Assembly (NCBI GenBank): GCA_016206585.1
Contig: JACQRE010000158.1
Location: forward strand, 1-63,693
Length of the DNA: 63,693 bases
Direction of reading: 5' to 3'
From: Candidatus Omnitrophota bacterium
Lineage (GTDB): Bacteria; Omnitrophota; Gorgyraeia; Aquiviventales; Aquiviventaceae
The notes under the pieces are model-generated. The model was not told the DNA's origin. It made no database searches and worked only from the letters and a program-made list of their open reading frames with translations. Numbering within the stretch: the first letter of the stretch is position 1; each line of letters begins with the position of its first letter. A program made the translations under genes and the position numbers. Below, piece after piece: positions 5,814 through 23,063 of the stretch.

Positions 5814-6113
5814 GTGACCAAACAAGCCCTCACCCAGAAGCAGCAGGTGGTCCTCGAGTTCATTCAGCGCTTCTTCACGGAGCACCGGAAGTCGCCGCTC
5901 ATCCGGGAGATCCAAACCGGCTGCCAGATCGCCTCGTACAAATCCGCCATTGACCGGCTCAACGCGCTGGAGCGCAAAGGGTTCATCAGGCGGGCGTCCA
6001 ATAAGCACCGGGGCATCCGGTTAGTGCGCCGGCTGGCCGTTGAAGCGCCGGTGGCCGCCGGAGGGCCGCCGCCGCTGGGCGAGGGAGCGGCCGAGGGAGC
6101 CTCGGTGGTATGA
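5814..6113 (+). CDS. LexA-like winged-helix DNA-binding protein lacking the S24 peptidase domain
   Basis: [29 protein letters not shown]...[17 protein letters not shown]...RGIRLV matches the LexA N-terminal domain. A VAAG motif follows. The protein ends after 99 aa. Confidence 0.75.
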
Positions 6114-6253
6114 TCCCACCACCTGCGCCCCCTTGCCGCAGGCAAGGCACGAAGCGCGCCATGACCAGTCTTGCGGATTTTCAACCGCGCGCTTCGGCGT
6201 GGCGGCCTGCTGTGACGACCATGAGCCGCCGCGAGGCGCAGGTGGTGGAATGA
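6110..6253 (+). repeat. ATGA-flanked intergenic element, copy 2
   Basis: Stem 6113-6128 pairs with 6236-6251 (15/16). Hairpins are 6131-6137/6141-6147, 6150-6159/6187-6196 and 6199-6206/6225-6232. ATGA occurs at 6110-6113 (stop) and at 6250-6253 (start). Confidence 0.8.
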
Positions 6254-7212
6254 GAGTCCTCGTCACCGGCGGGGCGGGGTTCATCGGCTCCCATCTGTGC
6301 GACCGGTTTCTCCGGGACGGCCATGAGGTCGTCTGCGTCGATAACTTCCTGACCGGCAGCCGGACCAACATCGCGCACCTGCGTGCGCAGTCGGCGTTCC
6401 GGCTCATCGAGCACGACATCTCGAAGCCGCTCACCCTCGACGGGGCGATTGACGCGATCCTCCATTTCGCCTCGCCGGCCAGCCCGATCGACTACCTGAA
6501 GCTGCCCATCCAGACGCTGAAGGTCGGCTCGCTGGGCACGCTCAACGGCCTGGGGATCGCGAAGGCCAAGCAGGCGCGGTTCCTGCTCGCGTCGACCTCG
6601 GAGGTGTACGGCGACCCCAGCGTCCATCCGCAGCCCGAGAGCTACTGGGGGCACGTGAACCCGGTCGGGCCGCGCGGCGTCTACGATGAGGCCAAGCGGT
6701 TCGCCGAGGCGATCACGATGGCCTACCACCGGGAGCACCAGGTGGCCACGCGCATCGTGCGGATCTTCAACACGTACGGCCCGCGGATGCGCATGCAGGA
6801 CGGCCGGGCGATCCCGGCGTTCATCACGCCAGCGCTGCGGGGGGAGCCGATCACCGTGTTCGGGACGGGGGCGCAGACGCGCTCGTTCTGCTACGTGGAC
6901 GACCTCGTCGAGGGGATCGTGCGGCTGCTCCACTCCGATCACGCCGAGCCGATGAACCTGGGCAATCCGGAGGAGTACACGATCCTGCAGCTGGCCCAGC
7001 GCATCATCGAGGCCACGGGAAGCAAAAGCCGCATCGTCTACCAGACGCTGCCCCAGGACGATCCCAAGCAGCGGTGTCCCGACATCACGCTGGCAACGCG
7101 GACGCTGCAGTGGCAGGCGGCGACCCCGCTGGCCGCCGGGCTGCCGAAAACGATCGAGTGGTTCAGAACAGCCATGGGGCTGGCGTCCGCCGCAGGAGCG
7201 CGCCATGGCTGA
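6250..7212 (+). CDS. UDP-glucuronate decarboxylase (UDP-xylose synthase)
   Basis: [58 protein letters not shown]. Confidence 0.92.
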
Positions 7213-7621: not shown

Positions 7622-7752
7622 ATCACCAATGACCAAATTCCAAACACCACATAATCACCAAACATCAATGCACCAATCACCAAACCGTTTGGTGATTCGG
7701 TCATTGGTCCATTGGTCATTATGTGGTGATTGGAATGTGGTGTTTGGTTATT
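7621..7752. repeat. long imperfect hairpin, CACCAAn/TTGGTGA family, copy A1
   Basis: ~65-nt arms around centre CAAAC-C-GTTTG (7681-7691). AT-richer than the flanks. Starts at the last base of the SxtJ-like stop codon. Confidence 0.8.
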
Positions 7753-7768
7753 GCGAGCGTGCGGTGTG

Positions 7769-9595
7769 ATGCATATTCTGGGACTCTCCTGCTACTTCCA
7801 CGACGCGGCGGCGGCCCTCCTGCGCGACGGCGTGCTGATCGCCGCTGCGGAGGAGGAGCGGTTCTCCCGCACGAAGCACGACTTCGGCTTCCCGCGCCAC
7901 GCCATCGACTTCTGCCTGCGGCAAGGAGGCCTGACCGCGCAGGACCTCGACTACGTGGTGTTCTACGAGAAACCGTTCGTGAAGTTCCAGCGCATCCTCC
8001 AGTCGAACCTGCGGACGTGGCCGCGGTCCTGGCGCGCGTTTCCGGACGCGATGACCCACTGGATGCGCGAGAAGCTCTGGACGCGCACCCTCATCCAGGA
8101 AACGCTGGGGATCCCCGCGGAGCGGATCCTCTTTTCCGAGCACCACCTCTCGCATGCGGCCAGCGCCTTCTTCTGCGCGCCGTACGAGGAGGCCGCGATC
8201 ATCACGGTCGACGGGGTGGGGGAGTGGACCACGACGACGATGGGCCGCGGATCCGCCACATGGAACGGGCAGGGCCGCAACGAGATCGTCCTGTCGCACG
8301 AGATCCGCTTCCCCCACTCGCTGGGGCTGCTGTACTCCGCGTTCACCGCGTTCCTCGGCTTCGAGGTCAACGAGGGCGAGTACAAGGTGATGGGCATGGC
8401 GCCCTACGGGCAGCCGCGGTACCGCGATCGCGTGGCCCAGGTGCTGCATCTTGAACGCGACGGCAGCTTCTGGCTCGACCTCGACTACCTCAGCTACCAC
8501 TACTCCGACCGCCGCTCGTTCAGCCGCAAGCTCACGCAGCTCTTCGGCGAGCCGCGCGTGCCCGAGAGCGAGTTCTACACACGCTCGACCGGCCTGCCGG
8601 ACCGCCACGACGCGCGGAGGCTCGAGGCGAATGAGCACTACGCCGACGTCGCCGCCAGCATCCAGCAGGCGACCGAGGACGCGCTCCTGGCGATGGCGAA
8701 CCGTGTGCATGACGAAACCGGGCTCACGCGGCTGTGCCTGGCCGGCGGGGTGGCGTACAACAGCGTGGCGAACGGCCGGCTCCTGCGCGAAACGCCGTTC
8801 ACGGACATCTACATCCAGCCGGCGGCCGGCGATTCCGGCGGGGCGGTGGGGGCGGCCCTCTACGCCTACCACGTGCTGCTGCAGCGGCCCCGCGCGTTCG
8901 TGATGGACCACGCGTACTGGGGGGCCGCGTTTTCGGATGCCCAGCTCGAGGCCGCCCTGCGGGACCGGAACCTGGCCTTCGAGCGGTTCTCGGACGATGA
9001 GGAGCTGCTCGAGGAGGTCGCCGGAGCGCTCGCCGATGGGCGCGTGGTCGGGTGGTACCAGGGGCGCACCGAATGGGGCCCGCGGGCGCTGGGCAACCGC
9101 AGCATCCTCGCCGATCCGCGCCGGGCGGAGATGAAGTCGATCGTCAACGAGAAGATCAAGTTCCGGGAGCCATTCCGGCCCTTTGCCCCGTCGATTCTCA
9201 TGGACCGCGTGGCCGAGTACGTCGACTTCCAGGACAGCGACCGGCATCTCCCCGCCCAGTTCATGCTCTACGTGGCGGACGTGCGGCCCGAGCAGCGCAG
9301 CCGCATCCCCGCGGTGACGCACGCGGATGGCAGCAGCCGGCTGCAGGCGGTGTCCCCCAGGACCAATCCGCGCTACGCCCGGCTCATCGAGCGCTTCGAA
9401 GCGCGGACCGGGGTGCCCGTGGTACTCAATACCTCGTTCAACCTGCGCGGCGAGCCGATGGTCAACGCTCCGGCGGATGCGGTTACGACGTTCCTCAACA
9501 GCGGGATCGATTGGCTCGCGCTCGGGTCGTATCTCGTGCGGAAACCGGGAAGCGTCCGCGCCGACGCGCCGGCCCAGGCGGCCGCGGCAACGTGA
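7769..9595 (+). CDS. NodU/CmcH-family carbamoyltransferase
   Basis: MHILGLSCYFHDAAAALLRDG, EERFSRTKHD, LCLAGGVAYNSVANG, TSFNLRGEPMV. Confidence 0.93.
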   Translation: MHILGLSCYFHDAAAALLRDGVLIAAAEEERFSRTKHDFGFPRHAIDFCLRQGGLTAQDLDYVVFYEKPFVKFQRILQSNLRTWPRSWRAFPDAMTHWMREKLWTRTLIQETLGIPAERILFSEHHLSHAASAFFCAPYEEAAIITVDGVGEWTTTTMGRGSATWNGQGRNEIVLSHEIRFPHSLGLLYSAFTAFLGFEVNEGEYKVMGMAPYGQPRYRDRVAQVLHLERDGSFWLDLDYLSYHYSDRRSFSRKLTQLFGEPRVPESEFYTRSTGLPDRHDARRLEANEHYADVAASIQQATEDALLAMANRVHDETGLTRLCLAGGVAYNSVANGRLLRETPFTDIYIQPAAGDSGGAVGAALYAYHVLLQRPRAFVMDHAYWGAAFSDAQLEAALRDRNLAFERFSDDEELLEEVAGALADGRVVGWYQGRTEWGPRALGNRSILADPRRAEMKSIVNEKIKFREPFRPFAPSILMDRVAEYVDFQDSDRHLPAQFMLYVADVRPEQRSRIPAVTHADGSSRLQAVSPRTNPRYARLIERFEARTGVPVVLNTSFNLRGEPMVNAPADAVTTFLNSGIDWLALGSYLVRKPGSVRADAPAQAAAAT

Positions 9596-9604
9596 GGGGT
9601 GGGG

Positions 9605-9775
9605 ATGTCACGGATCGGATCGCGGGCGGGGATCGTCGGACGGTTGTTGCAGTACCTATGGCGGGAGCGGCTGTGGTGGCTGATCCCGGCGGTCATCATC
9701 TTGCTGGTCTTCGGCGGGCTGATTTTCTTCAGTCAGAGCTCGGCCGTCGCGCCTTTCGTCTACACGCTGTTTTGA
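9605..9775 (+). CDS. 56-aa hydrophobic mini-protein (DUF5989-like), absent from the supplied ORF track
   Basis: My own translation: [56 protein letters not shown]. It sits 9 nt after the carbamoyltransferase stop and 1 nt before gmd. Confidence 0.65.
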
Positions 9776-9776
9776 G

Positions 9777-11978
9777 GTGACCATGACACGCGCGCTGATT
9801 ACAGGCATCACGGGACAGGACGGCTCGTACCTGGCGGAGCTGCTGCTGCAGAAGGGCTACGAGGTGTTCGGGATCATCCGGCGCTCGAGCACCTTCAACG
9901 CCACGGTGCCCTTCAGCAAGGTGCTGCAGGAGTGGCAGGCCTCCGGCCAGCTGCACCTGGAGTACGGCGACCTCAACGATGCGAGCTCGCTCAACAAGAT
10001 CGTGCACTCCATCCGGCCGGATGAGATCTACAACCTCGCCGCCCAGAGCCACGTCCAGGTGAGCTTCGACATCCCGGAGTACACCGGCGAGATCACGGGG
10101 CTGGGCGTCGTGCGGTTGCTTGAGGCGATCCGCGAGAGCGACCTCAAGCCGCGGTTCTACCAGGCGTCCAGCTCCGAGCTGTACGGCCGGGTGCAGGAGA
10201 CGCCGCAGCGCGAGACGACCCCGTTCTACCCGCGCAGCCCCTACGCCTGCGCGAAGGCGTACGCGTTCTACATCACGCGCAACTACCGCGAGGCGTACGG
10301 CCTCTTCACCTGCAACGGAATTTTGTTCAATCACGAGACGGTAGCGTCATTTATGCCGATGTTTTGTAAGAACGTTGATGAGGATGAATTTGACATCAAA
10401 CCCATCTGTGAAATCGTCCCTTTTGATGAATCCAATACACAGTATCAAGCTCGAGAGGTTTCCGGAATTTGCGTCTGGGGAAAAGGCGCATGGGTCGATG
10501 TCTCGTATGCCTCCGCATATCCGCATGACGTGATGAGCGACAACAAGAAGCCCAGATTCATCAATGCTCGATCAGGGGCGTTCATGGCGACTTCGAGCCA
10601 TGTCGGCTTCATGGAAGGCGGCGAGGAAAGAGAAGTTGGCAGGATGAGCATTGGCGATCGTTTGGAGCAGCTCGATTTGCCGGAACCTTCCGGGCGAAAC
10701 CCCTATCCGATCTCTGAAGAGGAAGCCGAGCTCTTGGGCATGATGGTGGGGGATGGGTCCTTCACACGGTCGAGGCGGGGCATTGGCGTGCATGGAAAGT
10801 TTACCAATTCATGTCCTGAAATGCGTCAGCGCTTCAGCGACTTATGGTCAAAAGTCACAGGAGGACGCACCACCTATTACCCGACTCGTTCAGGCTTTAA
10901 TCCTGATAACATCGTGGGTCAACTCAGTCTCATAGGCCGAAATGACTGGTTGAGAAGTATAGACATTTATAACCGAGATAGAACCAAGCGCGTTCCCAAA
11001 GTCATTTTGAATTCCGGAAAAGCGATTATGCTGGCGTTCCTGCGCGGCTATAACGCGACCGACGGTCTCAAAAGTAACCCCTGCACGTACGAGTTTAGAA
11101 ACTTTAAGACAAATTCAGCCACATTGGCGATGGGGTTGTGGTATCTGATCGATCAGACCACCATGCAAGATGTCAATTTAACGGTCGAAACCAAAGCAGA
11201 TGGCCGCATCTTCTACTCACTGAACCTATTATCGACGACCGATAACCTCTCGAAGGAGCACAGCGTTCGTGAACTTGCGTTGGCAGACGTGTCTCAACGG
11301 GAAATATCACGCCGGACGGGCATCTCAAGAACCTTTATCCGTAAAATCCAGAACGGCGGTTCCGCATGCTTGACGCATCATCTGCGAAAGGAGTCCTCCG
11401 AAATCAAGAAAATCGTTGAAATGCCGAATTATCAGGGGTGGTTCTATGATCTTGAGACATCGTCGGGTGAATTTCATTGCGGCATTGGAACAATCCATGT
11501 TCACAATTCGCCCCGCCGGGGCGAGATTTTCGTCAGCCGCAAGATCACCCGGGCGGCGACCCGCATCAAGCTGGGGCTGCAGGATGCGCTGCTCCTCGGG
11601 AACCTGGAGGCGAAGCGCGACTGGGGTTACGCGCCCGAGTACGTCGAGGCGATGTGGCTCATGCTCCAGCAGGAGCGGCCGGACGACTACGTGATCGCCA
11701 CCGGCGAGACGCACTCGGTGCGCGAGTTCGTGGAGGAGGCCTTCGGCCACCTGGGCCTTCCGTGGGAGCGGTACGTGAAGACCGATCCGCAGTACCTGCG
11801 GCCCTCCGAGGTGGACGCCCTGGTGGGCGACGCCTCGAAGGCCGGGCGGCAGCTCGGGTGGCGCCCGAAAGTGAAGTTCAAGGACCTGGTGCGCATCATG
11901 GTCGATGCGGACCTGCTCGTGGCGGAACAGGAAGCGCACGCGCAGAGCTTCCAAGCGAAACCGCTCTCCGTGTCATAA
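9777..11978 (+). CDS. gmd: GDP-mannose 4,6-dehydratase interrupted by an in-frame intein (precursor 733 aa, spliced product 343 aa)
   Basis: [43 protein letters not shown] // [15 protein letters not shown]. The start may be the ATG at 9783. Confidence 0.93.
10338..11507 (+). mobile_element. 390-aa intein with a LAGLIDADG homing-endonuclease domain
   Basis: Block [19 protein letters not shown] motifs [11 protein letters not shown] and [13 protein letters not shown]. Blocks [25 protein letters not shown]|S. Visibly AT-rich compared with the flanks. Confidence 0.88.
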
Positions 11979-12079: not shown

Positions 12080-13240
12080 ATGCACATTGGGATTGAAGGC
12101 CACGGGTTCTGGGGGGAAGGGGGCAGCCAGACCCGGTACGCCTTCCAGCTCATCAGAGCGCTCGCCCGCATCGACCGGACAAACCGCTACATCGTGTTCT
12201 TCAACTCGGCCCGTCGCCGGCTGCCCGGCCAGGGCCGGTTCAGGGAACAGCTCCAGAACGACAACTTCTCCTACGTCATGACCCGCCTGCCCAACACCGG
12301 TTCGCCCTGGCTCAAGCGGCTGCGCCGCGACGTGCTCTGGCCCTGGCGGGGCGCACAGCGCGGCATCGGGTTGTTCCACTCCACCGCCCAGCGCCGCATG
12401 TACACGAACGGGGTCGCCTCCGTGCTGACGATCCATGACCTCGCCGGGCTGGTGCACCCCGAATGGTTCCCGTCCGACTCGCTGGCGCACGAGCAGAATG
12501 CCACCGCCCTGCGGGACATCCGGCAGGCGCGCCTGACCATCGCCTCATCACGCAACACCCAACAGGACATCCAGCGCATGGCGGGCGTTGGGCTGGAACG
12601 GGTGCGGGTCGTCCTGCTGGGCGTCGACACCGGCGAGTTCCACCCCGTCGAAGATCCCGCCGCCATTGAGGCGGTGACCCGCCGGCTGGGCATCCGCGGC
12701 CCCTACCTGTTGCACGTGGGCGACCTGGTGCCGCGCAAGAACCTGGAGCGGCTCATCCGCGTCTTCGCGCGGCTGAAGGCGTCGAAGCGTCTCCCGCATC
12801 AGCTCGTGCTCGCCGGCAAGCGGAACTACGGGCCGCCCAGCCTGTTCGAGCTGCCGCGCGCGCTGGGTGTGGGCGACGACGTGCTGTTTCCCGGGTTCGT
12901 CGAGGAGGCGAATCTGCCGGCCCTCTACGCCGGGGCCGCGCTGTTCGTGTACCCCTCGTGCTACGAGGGGTTCGGGTTGCCGCTCCTGGAGGCGATGGCC
13001 TGCGGGGTGCCGGTGATCTCCTCCAACGCGGCCTCGTTGGTGGAGGTCGCCGGAGAGGCCGCCATCATCCTGGACCCCTCGGATGAAGCCGGGTGGGAGG
13101 AGACGATCGGGGATCTCCTGGACGATGACGCGACGCGGCGCGCCCTGATCGCGCGGGGGCTGGCGCACGTGCAGGGGTTCACGTGGGACAAGACGGCTAA
13201 GCAGACGCTCGCCGCGTACCGCGAGTTGGGAGCCGACTGA
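12080..13240 (+). CDS. GT4-family glycosyltransferase (paralogue of 17418..18575)
   Basis: MHIGIEGHGFWGEGG..., YPSCYEGFGLPLLEAMACGVPVISS. Confidence 0.9.
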   Translation: MHIGIEGHGFWGEGGSQTRYAFQLIRALARIDRTNRYIVFFNSARRRLPGQGRFREQLQNDNFSYVMTRLPNTGSPWLKRLRRDVLWPWRGAQRGIGLFHSTAQRRMYTNGVASVLTIHDLAGLVHPEWFPSDSLAHEQNATALRDIRQARLTIASSRNTQQDIQRMAGVGLERVRVVLLGVDTGEFHPVEDPAAIEAVTRRLGIRGPYLLHVGDLVPRKNLERLIRVFARLKASKRLPHQLVLAGKRNYGPPSLFELPRALGVGDDVLFPGFVEEANLPALYAGAALFVYPSCYEGFGLPLLEAMACGVPVISSNAASLVEVAGEAAIILDPSDEAGWEETIGDLLDDDATRRALIARGLAHVQGFTWDKTAKQTLAAYRELGAD

Positions 13241-13375
13241 GAATCACCAATGACCAAGCACCAAACACCACATAATCACCAATGGACCAATGACCGAATG
13301 ACCAAACGGTTTGGTGATTGGTGCATTGGTGTTTGGTGTTTATGTGGTGATTGGAATTTGGTGTTTGGTGATTCG
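13241..13375. repeat. CACCAAn-family hairpin, copy A2, inverted relative to A1
   Basis: It fills the whole stop-to-start gap. The centre is CAAAC-G-GTTTG, the reverse complement of the A1 centre. The reverse complement of its right arm matches the A1 left arm at 60 of 65 positions. Confidence 0.8.
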
Positions 13376-13377
13376 AA

Positions 13378-14220
13378 ATGAATATGCCGCCTGTTGTGAT
13401 CCTGTGCGGGGGCCGCGGCACCCGCCTGCGCGAGCGGACCGAGAGCATCCCGAAGGCGCTCGTCGAGATCGGCGGCCGGCCGATCCTCTGGCACATCATG
13501 AAGATCTACGCGTCGTTCGGCTGCCGGCGGTTCATCCTCTGCCTCGGATACAAGGGCGACCAGATCCGCCGGTGCTTCACGGGACGGCGAGGGGCTGTCC
13601 CTCGACTCGCCACCGTGTCTTCCGCACGGGGCTCGCTCGGGACTCCGCCCCCTGACGAGGTTCAGGGGGGCTCCGCGCGCGGTGCAGTCGGGATGGAGGA
13701 CACGGTGGAGCACCGCGAGGCGGGGCAGACGTGGACGATCACCTTCGCCGACACCGGCGTGGACACCAACAGCGGCGGGCGCCTCGCCCGCATCGTCCCG
13801 CGGCTCGAGGCCTCACTGGCCTTTGTGACGTACGGCGACGGGCTGGCGCGCATCGACCTGGAGGAGCTCCTGGCGTTCCACGAGTCGCACAGGCGGCTGG
13901 CCACGGTCACCTGCGTGCGGCCGGCGTGCCCCTTCGGCGTCGTCGAGGTGGGCGGCGAGGACCAGGTGACGGCGTTCCGGGAGAAGCCCCCGATGCGGGA
14001 CTGGGTGAACGGCGGCTTTTTCGTCTTCGATCGCCAAGCGCTCGACGGGTTCGGGGACGACGAGGTGCTCGAGCGCGAGCCGCTCGAGCGGCTGACGCGG
14101 GCGGGGCAGCTGTCCGCCTACCGGTTCGACGGGTTCTGGATGTGCATGGACACCTACAAGGACGCCCAGCAGCTCAACGTGCTGTGGGAGCGCGGGGAGG
14201 CGCCATGGAAAATCTGGTAG
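13378..14220 (+). CDS. rfbF: glucose-1-phosphate cytidylyltransferase
   Basis: VILCGGRGTRLRE, PKALVEIGGRPILWHIMKIY, GYKG, VNGGFFVF, GFWMCMDTYKD, APWKIW. About 23 aa are inserted after GYKG. Confidence 0.88.
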   Translation: MNMPPVVILCGGRGTRLRERTESIPKALVEIGGRPILWHIMKIYASFGCRRFILCLGYKGDQIRRCFTGRRGAVPRLATVSSARGSLGTPPPDEVQGGSARGAVGMEDTVEHREAGQTWTITFADTGVDTNSGGRLARIVPRLEASLAFVTYGDGLARIDLEELLAFHESHRRLATVTCVRPACPFGVVEVGGEDQVTAFREKPPMRDWVNGGFFVFDRQALDGFGDDEVLEREPLERLTRAGQLSAYRFDGFWMCMDTYKDAQQLNVLWERGEAPWKIW

Positions 14221-21779: not shown

Positions 21780-22975
21780 TCACCGTCTTGCATCTCTCGC
21801 ACTGCCTCAACCGCTACGACTATATCGACGCGGTGATCCGGCACGCGGACCCCGCGCAGTTCCGCATGCTGGCCGCGACGCTGACGGATGACGGCTCGGT
21901 GCGTCCCGGGGCGGCGCCGTATCCGGTGACCGTGTTGGGCGTGCGCGCCCGGACCCAGTGGCCGGCTGCGGCGGCGGCGCTGCGGCGCCTGTGCCGGAGC
22001 GAGCGCGTGGACGTCGTCCATACGCACAATCTCGATTCGACGGCGATCGGCGCCTTCGCCGCGCTCGGCATCCGCCGGGTGCGGCTCGTCATCGGGCGGC
22101 ACTACGCGGATGCGCTCTATCAGCTGCGCCCCGCCTGGAAGTGCCGCGCCCTCCTGGCGCTGGAAGGCTGGTGCAACCGCCGCGCGGCGCGCCTCATCGC
22201 GCCCTCCTCCATGGTGCGCGCGATCCTCGTGGAGCGTCAGCGCGTGCCGGCGCGGCGTGTCGCGCAGATTCCGTACGGGTTCGACTTCGCCAAGCATCAG
22301 GCGTCCGTGGATGCGCCGGCACGGCTGCGGCGCGAGCTGGGGCTGGAGGGGGCGGCCGTGCTGGGCAGCTTCTCGCGGTTGAACGCCGATAAAGGGCACG
22401 CCGATCTGTTGCGCGCCTTCGCCCGGCTGCAGCCGGGGCGGCCCACGCTGCGCCTGCTCCTCGTCGGGGAGGGGAACGTCAGGCCGCGCCTTGAGGCGCT
22501 GGCCCGGGAGCTCGGCGTGCAGGAGCGGGTGCGGTTCGCCGGGTGGCGCGCGGATGTCATCGACCTCATGGCGATGGCGGATGTGGTCGCGCACCCCTCG
22601 CTCCACGAGGCGTTCAGCCAGGTGATGGTGGAGGCGCTGGCCATGGGCAAGCCGCTCGTGATCACCGACGTGAGCGGTGTCGCCGATGTCGTGCGGGATG
22701 GCTGGAACGGGCTCATCGTCCCGAAGGCGGATCCGGCGGCGCTGGCGGCGGCGGTCACGCGGCTGCTCGACCATCCCGAGGAGGCCGCCGCAATGGGCGC
22801 GCGCGGGCGCGCGCGGGTGCGCCGCGAGCTGGACATCCACGTCATCATCACACAGTACGAAGCGGTCTATCGGAACGTGATGGGGCAGGAACAATCACCA
22901 AACACCAAATCTCAATCACCAAATAATCACCAAGATCCAATCACCAATGACCAAACAATTGAGGTCATCGCGTAG
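21776..22975 (+). CDS. GT4-family glycosyltransferase
   Basis: VAHPSLHEAFSQVMVEALAMGKPLVITDVSG. The last ~30 aa are a translation of the left arm of repeat A3. Confidence 0.88.
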   Translation: MITVLHLSHCLNRYDYIDAVIRHADPAQFRMLAATLTDDGSVRPGAAPYPVTVLGVRARTQWPAAAAALRRLCRSERVDVVHTHNLDSTAIGAFAALGIRRVRLVIGRHYADALYQLRPAWKCRALLALEGWCNRRAARLIAPSSMVRAILVERQRVPARRVAQIPYGFDFAKHQASVDAPARLRRELGLEGAAVLGSFSRLNADKGHADLLRAFARLQPGRPTLRLLLVGEGNVRPRLEALARELGVQERVRFAGWRADVIDLMAMADVVAHPSLHEAFSQVMVEALAMGKPLVITDVSGVADVVRDGWNGLIVPKADPAALAAAVTRLLDHPEEAAAMGARGRARVRRELDIHVIITQYEAVYRNVMGQEQSPNTKSQSPNNHQDPITNDQTIEVIA

Positions 22976-23041
22976 TTGTTTGGTGATTGGTGTTTGGTTA
23001 TTGGAGCTTATTTGGTGATTGGAATTTGGTGATTGGTGATT
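22893..23041. repeat. CACCAAn-family hairpin, copy A3
   Basis: ~66-nt arms at 22893-22958 and 22976-23041, with a 17-nt loop. The stop codon of the upstream GT4 lies in the loop. Confidence 0.8.
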
Positions 23042-23063
23042 TCATGAGCAGCGAGATGTGTTG

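Follow-up and report, generated by a model that had tools for sequence, protein, structure and literature searches.

A probable class 1 LAGLIDADG intein that begins with threonine interrupts GDP-mannose 4,6-dehydratase in a Candidatus Omnitrophota bacterium

Why should a gene for a sugar-nucleotide enzyme of 343 amino acids (aa) occupy a reading frame of 733 codons? The question is raised by gmd, encoding GDP-mannose 4,6-dehydratase (GMD), in contig JACQRE010000158.1 of a Candidatus Omnitrophota bacterium (assembly GCA_016206585.1), of which we analyzed a stretch of 63,693 nt, here called the window. The open reading frame (ORF; positions 9777..11978, 733 aa plus stop; like all coordinates of gmd and its parts, on the plus strand) scores 484.6 bits against the GMD equivalog model TIGR01472, above its trusted cutoff of 415, and matches Pfam GDP_Man_Dehyd with E = 2.5e-133. 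Both models align in two stretches, residues 1-187 and 578-733, that flank an insert. The insert is very likely a genuine intein of class 1, probably able to splice, carrying a LAGLIDADG endonuclease and a helix-turn-helix (HTH) module, in the NHE|SPRRG motif of GMD, and its first residue is threonine.

The N-extein (9777..10337) comprises GMD residues 1-187 and ends in ...GILFNHE. The insert (10338..11507, 390 aa) runs from ORF residue 188 (Thr, codon ACG, from nt 10338) to residue 577 (Asn, AAT, to nt 11507), that is, from Thr1 to His389-Asn390 in intein numbering, and the C-extein (11508..11975, 156 aa) opens with Ser+1 (TCG) of SPRRG. Deletion of 10338..11507 yields a contiguous NHE-SPRRGEIF and a GMD of 343 aa; the junction is unambiguous, because a single parse both restores NHESPRRG and ends in His-Asn followed by Ser. 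An earlier note, made from the letters of this DNA alone, had named the enzyme, the limits of the insert and the size of the rejoined product, all of which hold to the base, and the motifs that it quoted, including GTIHVHN followed by Ser, are present as written. The probability, calculated by hand, that 390 codons stay open by chance at about 50% G+C is (61/64)^390, about 7e-9. The insertion is in frame in a conserved host protein, as expected of a class 1 intein. Conserved active-site positions are typical intein locations. Here the Arg pair of SPRRG lies three to four residues past the junction, and the insertion point is 3-4 residues ahead of the conserved Arg190 (BceN numbering) that orients GDP-mannose and NADP+ (PMC3584063); the unspliced 733-aa precursor should be enzymatically inactive. 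The SPRRG motif is not the "RR loop" of GMD; that name belongs to the N-terminal GXXRR motif.

Scans of the insert with Pfam and NCBIfam models returned LAGLIDADG_3, weak HTH matches and faint matches to the intein-containing DnaB, V-ATPase and RFC models. As curated models were weak on the insert, we relied on a structure model and on profile searches. With phmmer, the insert matched PI-PkoII in the PDB, in an alignment that includes block F/G and extends as far as the His-Asn at the end. Among 5.8 billion proteins, a search retrieved 55 relatives, nearly all of them with a GMD extein and a homologous insert at the same site, the few others being short fragments. An AlphaFold2 model built on the alignment of these relatives reached a pLDDT of 91.4 and a pTM of 0.88, and its best Foldseek matches in the PDB were all endonuclease-containing inteins (TliVMA, E = 6e-19; PI-PkoII, 2.7e-15; PI-SceI, 1e-9), followed by free LAGLIDADG enzymes, mini-inteins and WhiA. 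The mini-inteins match the splicing part at a TM score of about 0.5, as expected for a HINT (Hedgehog/intein) fold. Likewise, a profile of 12 trimmed inteins of the family retrieved TliVMA (2e-11) and PI-PkoII (5e-10) from the PDB sequences. An exhaustive phmmer search over 1.84 billion representatives extended the set to 418 relatives, and the distant homologs also reside in non-GMD hosts: family-B DNA polymerases (PolB), DNA ligase, RadA, a subtilase and a glycosyltransferase (GT2). Two homologs found by phmmer, P0273 and P0282, exceed the cutoff of the Pfam Intein_splicing model (PF14890; 35.8) with 36.2 and 37.2 bits, a link that is only transitive for the window sequence. On the basis of the PDB match, the same-site relatives, the predicted fold, the profile matches and the distant homologs, the insert belongs to the intein superfamily. 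What the analysis shows is its architecture and fold, the conservation of its residues, purifying selection, its distribution and composition, and an ortholog that is free of the intein.

The anatomy of the insert is that of a splicing domain split by an endonuclease, and conservation is given as counts from 72 complete GMD inteins recovered from species-representative genomes. The N-terminal splicing (HINT) region (10338..10682, residues 1-115) is formed by beta-strands in the AlphaFold2 model and holds block A, the NX-motif His63 (10524..10526; 70/72) and block B (Thr85-Ser-Ser-His88, 10590..10601), in which T85 (B:7) and H88 (B:10) occur in 72/72. An NX-motif His upstream of block B is a signature of class 1 oxyester inteins (PMC10189870), and His63 of the window intein corresponds to it. 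The C-terminal splicing region (11373..11507), which aligns with the C-terminus of PI-PkoII through the terminal HN, contains block F (W368-F-Y-D371...H380, 11439..11477), with D371 (F:4) in all 72 inteins and H380 (F:13) in 65, and block G (11481..11507), with H389 (G:6) in 71 and N390 in all; Ser+1 is present at every parsed junction.

Between these regions lies the LAGLIDADG homing-endonuclease domain (10683..11243, residues 116-302), recognized by Pfam LAGLIDADG_3 (PF14528; 24.0 bits, cutoff 22.5), which also matches 10 of 12 relatives, and by Foldseek matches to I-SceI, I-DmoI, I-AniI and the endonuclease domain of PI-SceI; it also resembles Staphylococcus phage helicase inteins. Both LAGLIDADG motifs keep their catalytic acidic residue, Asp139 in motif 1 (LLGMMVGD139, 10731..10763; 72/72) and Asp242 in motif 2 (11031..11069; 70/72). 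The domain also holds the part of the family with the highest conservation (NFKTNS, GYNxxDGLK), in which NFKTNS and its Lys257 (72/72) are invariant. The endonuclease is apparently active. The HTH module (11244..11372, about residues 303-345) separates the endonuclease domain from block F; it consists of three helices in the AlphaFold2 model, is backed by the fold matches to WhiA (LAGLIDADG plus HTH), and gives weak, sub-threshold matches to Pfam HTH_19, HTH_3 and HTH_28 (E 0.009-0.04 in the window; best 1.9e-4 among relatives). The module is an indel, present in the clade of about 390 aa with Thr1 to which the window intein belongs, and absent from the clade of about 348 aa with Ser1 or Cys1 that is typical of Eremiobacterota. 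Fold, profile-to-PDB matches, conserved residues and same-site homologs thus bear out the earlier proposal of a LAGLIDADG intein with an HTH segment at NHE|SPRRG.

In one respect, the list of expected intein features drawn up in that note needs amendment: blocks B, F and G and the LAGLIDADG motifs stand, but it overlooked that residue 1 is an atypical Thr (ACG), rather than Cys or Ser. Among the loci with an intact junction pair, residue 1 is Thr in 30 (window included), Ser in 38 and Cys in 4; further loci add six Cys1 inteins from DPANN/Paceibacterota and one more Thr1. No amino acid other than Thr, Ser or Cys occurs at this position in the 78 loci whose N-junction can be read, namely the 72 of the tree and the six DPANN/Paceibacterota loci with Cys1. 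The Thr codons are of all four types (ACA 13, ACG 11, ACC 5, ACT 1), Ser1 is encoded by both the TCN and the AGY families, and Cys1 by TGC and TGT. In a simple neighbor-joining tree, the sequences with Thr1 fall into a single deep clade that divides in two, one subclade from Omnitrophota, Planctomycetia, the Candidate Phyla Radiation (CPR) and DPANN, and another from Saprospiraceae/Bacteroidota, 41-45% identical to the window intein. Among metagenome proteins, Ser1 variants are nested beside Thr1 ones, including near-identical pairs that differ only by T versus S at residue 1 (P0053/P0006 and P0005/P0024). The window intein and its nearest relatives are saturated at synonymous sites (proportion of nonsynonymous differences, pN, about 0.15; of synonymous ones, pS, 0.78-0.87), and the ratio of nonsynonymous to synonymous substitution rates (dN/dS) was therefore taken from closer pairs elsewhere in the family; it is 0.05-0.17 in the unsaturated pairs. 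The non-GMD relatives all have Ser1 with Ser or Thr at +1, from which oxyester chemistry with Ser1 was probably ancestral. From this pattern, Thr1 appears to be under selection as one of three interchangeable nucleophiles. We lean, by a modest degree, toward Thr1 being the selected and functional first splicing nucleophile, in which case this would be the first recognized natural Thr1 clade, within an allele (NHE|S) that also has Ser1 and Cys1 forms.

The formal definition of class 1 inteins includes Thr1 (PMC5222942), and a 2010 review noted that natural Thr1 had not been seen, though Thr could serve as the first nucleophile, and cited the S1T mutant of the Tli pol-2 intein as splicing (PMC2807308). 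A 2014 review lists Cys1 or Ser1 alone as the nucleophiles of step 1 (PMC4031507). The searchable literature yielded neither a later account of natural Thr1 in an intein nor a published GMD intein, although absence there is no proof in either case. A natural Thr1, and a natural Thr/Ser/Cys series in one allele, is an unusual feature of an otherwise known type of intein.

The composition of the insert bears on how it arrived. The earlier note had judged it by eye to be below 50% G+C in surroundings of about 68%, and the measured values are 49.5% for the insert versus 64.5% for the N-extein, 68.2% for the C-extein and 68.4% for the window; at third codon positions (GC3) the contrast is 0.567 versus 0.947 (N-extein) and 0.923 (C-extein). 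The insert is the stretch of 1170 nt with the lowest G+C of the 63.7-kb window, about 6 standard deviations below the mean. Intein-free alleles, which the note had proposed to look for in relatives, are abundant: the 120 best database matches of the spliced extein are all intein-less, with 335-391 aa. The best of them, P0056, is 90% identical, reads uninterrupted through ...FNHESPRRGE..., as do P0057 and P0058, and lies in a syntenic context (a cut gene, then DUF5989, then gmd) equal to the order carbamoyltransferase-DUF5989-gmd of the window. The one intein-free allele for which DNA is available (locus L082; 82% aa identity, 47% G+C) is too diverged for a base-level comparison of the empty site. 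The GC3 contrast, together with the intein-free syntenic ortholog at 90% identity, indicates a recent acquisition, and recent horizontal homing, as the note had suggested, is the best reading.

The closest intein relatives, 73-77% identical, come from other Omnitrophota and from a Planctomycetia metagenome-assembled genome. More than 100 species-representative genomes of Bacteria and Archaea have an insert at this GMD site, with homologs of the intein in CPR bacteria, DPANN archaea, Bacteroidota, Eremiobacterota, Acidobacteriota and Chloroflexota; in Eremiobacterota the G+C of the intein is close to that of the host, which suggests a long residence there. The seven last codons of the N-extein (GGA ATT TTG TTC AAT CAC GAG, 10317..10337), the 5' half of the presumed homing site, may be a short co-conversion tract. 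Three of the seven have A or T as third base, compared with 10 among all 187 codons of the N-extein (P = 0.0035 by the hypergeometric distribution), and the 24 nt up to the junction (AACGGAATTTTGTTCAATCACGAG, an AAC codon plus these seven codons) are identical to the flank in the Omnitrophota locus L004. These weak signals are compatible with a short co-conversion tract or with constraint on the target site; the intein-less gmd junction of the window, and predicted target, is AACGGAATTTTGTTCAATCACGAG|TCGCCCCGCCGGGGCGAGATTTTC.

If the insert is a class 1 intein with a functional Thr1, the chemistry would proceed as follows. After folding of the 733-aa precursor, the hydroxyl of Thr1 would attack the carbonyl of Glu187 in an N-O acyl shift, aided by Thr85/His88, the NX-motif His63 and Asp371 (F:4), and Ser+1 would take over the N-extein by transesterification. 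Asn390 would then cyclize, aided by His389 and His380, releasing the 390-aa intein, and an O-N shift would produce the native GMD of 343 aa. The freed intein would cut intein-less gmd alleles site-specifically and copy itself into them by double-strand-break repair. Splicing, the Thr1 chemistry and the endonuclease activity we infer from the data above.

Several facts weigh against this interpretation. Pfam Intein_splicing (PF14890) does not match the window sequence at E<=1, and among 12 relatives only two gave weak matches (best E = 0.0085). The earlier note had proposed searches with splicing-domain and LAGLIDADG models and had taken a failure of the former as refutation; LAGLIDADG_3 was matched with 24.0 bits, and the result with Intein_splicing formally falls on the refuting side, but the more sensitive evidence from structure and profiles overrides the missing match. 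The support for splicing and for DNA cleavage is computational; for cleavage of the intein-less allele it is indirect, from the foreign G+C, the intein-free ortholog and the cross-domain distribution. Because Thr is a beta-branched residue, and surveys of inteins up to 2010 and 2014 had none with Thr at position 1, efficient splicing cannot be assumed. Its conservation could also partly reflect inheritance instead of independent selection, the 30 Thr1 sequences forming one neighbor-joining clade. As for mobility, the possible co-conversion tract is short and its signal weak (P = 0.0035). "Recent" is to be read as relative, and the donor is unsampled; even the nearest intein in the sample shares only 77% identity, and synonymous sites are saturated.

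A real intein might merely tolerate Thr1, with Ser+1 attacking the N-junction directly, in a class 2-like manner, or with another nucleophile acting, for example a Cys at F:14. Apart from the absence of natural Thr1 inteins from surveys up to 2010/2014, this would agree with two covariations: all 30 of 30 Thr1 members have Pro immediately ahead of the NX His (Pro62 in the window) instead of the usual Arg/Lys, found in 37 of the 42 others (33/38 Ser1 and 4/4 Cys1), and F:14 is Cys in 29/30 Thr1 members and Ala in all Ser1 and Cys1 members of the 72. Together, they suggest a re-tuned active site. Neither is obligatory, however, since metagenome proteins include Thr1 with F:14 Ala (P0015, P0016, P0018, P0021) and Ser1 with a YPH motif (P0006, P0024), and clade structure confounds the covariation signal. 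Moreover, position 1 is limited to T, S or C in the 78 loci, and the Ala, Pro or Gln known from inteins of classes 2 and 3 never occur; the WCT triplet of class 3 is also absent from the window intein. We therefore consider a merely tolerated Thr1 unlikely. Assignment to the other classes was rejected on sequence: a class 3 intein requires WCT, versus the Gly at B:12 (TSSHVG), Asp at F:4, Val at G:5 and Thr at residue 1 found here, and a class 2 (KlbA type) intein would have Ala as residue 1, where all the relatives examined have T, S or C. With respect to the oxyester NX subgroup, the window intein has the NX His (H63) but Pro62 in place of the preceding Arg/Lys.

That the insert is instead a splicing-dead remnant, with this gmd copy a pseudogene or a permanently interrupted, inactive enzyme, is quite improbable. 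An atypical residue 1, the lack of a Pfam splicing-domain match and a truncated public gene call (P0010, 316 aa, starting inside the intein) could be taken that way, but the truncated call is attributable to the shift in composition and an internal Met. Against decay, the frame of 733 codons is intact in spite of its AT-rich region, every splicing residue is conserved, dN/dS is well under 1 across the splicing, endonuclease and HTH parts, and more than 70 genomes carry this element in intact form, in some cases on Mb-scale contigs and as the gmd of a gmd-fcl-like operon. More improbable still is a co-opted intein that serves as a conditional-splicing switch on GMD activity at the post-translational level, and/or as a DNA-binding regulator with HTH and LAGLIDADG parts like WhiA, and not as a nuclease. 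The insertion does adjoin an Arg that orients substrate and cofactor, the fold resembles WhiA in having LAGLIDADG plus HTH, conservation within the family peaks in the endonuclease domain (NFKTNS, GYNxxDGLK), and the element has long been retained in Eremiobacterota at a host-like G+C. Nevertheless, the catalytic LAGLIDADG aspartates are kept (72/72 and 70/72), unlike in degenerate domains of the WhiA type, the patchy cross-domain distribution and the foreign G+C in the window fit active mobility, and we found no evidence of any splicing trigger.

The best matches of the GMD intein in sequence and fold are PI-PkoII, also called PI-TkoII, from Pol-2 of Thermococcus kodakarensis (PDB 2cw7) and TliVMA (7qss/7qsu), with which it shares a HINT domain split by a two-motif LAGLIDADG endonuclease plus a DNA-binding element; PI-TkoII is itself an oxyester intein (Ser1, Ser/Thr+1) (PMC10189870). 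Unlike these inteins, whose hosts are a polymerase and an ATPase, the GMD intein resides in a sugar-nucleotide dehydratase, starts with Thr1, has a small three-helix HTH before block F, and is only 15-17% identical to them. It shares hydroxyl nucleophiles at both junctions and the NX-motif His (70/72 in the GMD family) with the cysteine-independent class 1 inteins of the PolB16 OarG type (Pasch et al., 2023, PMC10189870). The latter have Ser1, whereas the window intein has Thr1 and retains non-catalytic cysteines, and ahead of the NX His, where Arg/Lys is described as invariable (PMC10189870), all 30 Thr1 GMD inteins have Pro. The Tli pol-2 S1T mutant (PMC2807308) shows that Thr1 supports splicing and that the chemistry is feasible, but it is an engineered mutant, whereas Thr1 is here the natural, conserved state of a clade. 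The WhiA protein (E = 5e-6 with Foldseek) has its domains in the same order, the LAGLIDADG fold first and the HTH after it, but it is free-standing, lacks splicing domains and has lost the nuclease residues, whereas the GMD intein keeps both catalytic Asp.

Sugar-nucleotide enzymes, which the earlier note had called unusual intein hosts, have a precedent in that role, as inteins in UDP-glucose/GDP-mannose dehydrogenases were already tabulated (PMC4760082). Ten archaeal UDP-glucose dehydrogenase inteins from Euryarchaeota likewise have a nucleotide-sugar enzyme as host (Novikova et al., 2016, PMC4760082); they differ from the GMD intein in enzyme family, insertion site and taxa, and the searchable text contains no GMD intein.

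GMD has at least two further intein sites in public data, and the window gene is occupied only at site b (NHE|S). Site a splits the catalytic YQAS|SSE (window equivalent about nt 10170), and is occupied by a Cys1 intein in P0203 and a Ser1 intein in P0208, both of them double-intein GMDs (1043 and 1087 aa, respectively). Site c is in RDWG..DY|C (P0049; window equivalent about nt 11642/11643, Y622|V623). Within the site b family, the metagenome intein P0016 (450 aa) has, after block B and ahead of LAGLIDADG motif 1, about 60 additional aa that include a C2H2-like zinc-finger motif (CCYCNHIFARKSNYDKHIDKC); the family thus has accessory DNA-binding modules of two kinds. In a Cys1 subclade from DPANN/Paceibacterota (L031, L032, L035, L036, L059, L075 and L034), Ser or Ala stands where the penultimate His is expected (...ISN|S, ...IAN|S); in this allele it is the second deviation from a canonical block G. 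The two intein junctions of locus L068 (Eremiobacterota contig CAWGMX010000010.1) are in different frames; either the copy is frameshifted and decaying, or the assembly is wrong.

The neighborhood of gmd is a glycan-synthesis cluster, with a short-chain dehydrogenase/reductase (SDR) epimerase, a carbamoyltransferase, a GT4 glycosyltransferase, a nucleotidyltransferase and a GT2 glycosyltransferase. Upstream of gmd lie DUF5989 (9599..9775) and, preceding it, the carbamoyltransferase (7730..9595). The second SDR of the GDP_Man_Dehyd/Epimerase superfamily (6040..7212, plus strand; Pfam Epimerase, E = 6e-51), noted as two genes upstream of gmd, may consume the product of GMD in an fcl/rmd-like step. 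In an Eremiobacterota genome, an intein-bearing gmd is followed by an fcl-like epimerase. The location of gmd in such clusters, and an insertion point so close to the Arg that orients substrate and cofactor, speak for a host gene whose product is required, which counts in favor of a working intein. The public NCBI protein of this contig (P0010, window 11028..11978), annotated as a "GDP-mannose 4,6-dehydratase" of 316 aa, starts at Met231 inside the intein; in public records, relatives are cut at the same Met or, because of the HTH, named "XRE family transcriptional regulator" (P0027, P0045). Gene-calling artifacts thus hide the intein in public records.

Elsewhere in the window, intergenic spaces contain near-perfect long hairpins built of CACCAAN/TTGGTGN heptamers (13241..13376, 22893..23042, 7624..7683 and at about 42328). 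Folded as RNA, 13238-13380 has a minimum free energy of -74.1 kcal/mol (z = -9.5) and 22885-23050 one of -84 kcal/mol (z = -12.7), and the pattern TTGGTGNTTGGTG occurs 15 times versus 0.1 expected. These hairpins look like a family of palindromic repeats between genes, similar to REP (repetitive extragenic palindromic) elements.

With at least 30 species-level genomes that have Thr1, and Ser1 or Cys1 at the same site in others, the natural avoidance of Thr becomes directly testable. If our reading of Thr1 is true, the family would offer a natural series for the tuning of a splicing active site to its nucleophile (Arg/Lys to Pro before the NX His, Ala to Cys at F:14), as well as a source of new cysteine-independent inteins; such hydroxyl-only inteins are wanted as protein-engineering tools (PMC10189870). 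Misannotation of these genes leads to GMD, and hence the capacity for fucose and rhamnose glycans, being mis-scored in genomes of Omnitrophota, CPR bacteria and DPANN archaea. Finally, the element spans the boundary between Bacteria and Archaea, and is therefore usable as a marker of gene exchange among the ultra-small microbes of groundwater.

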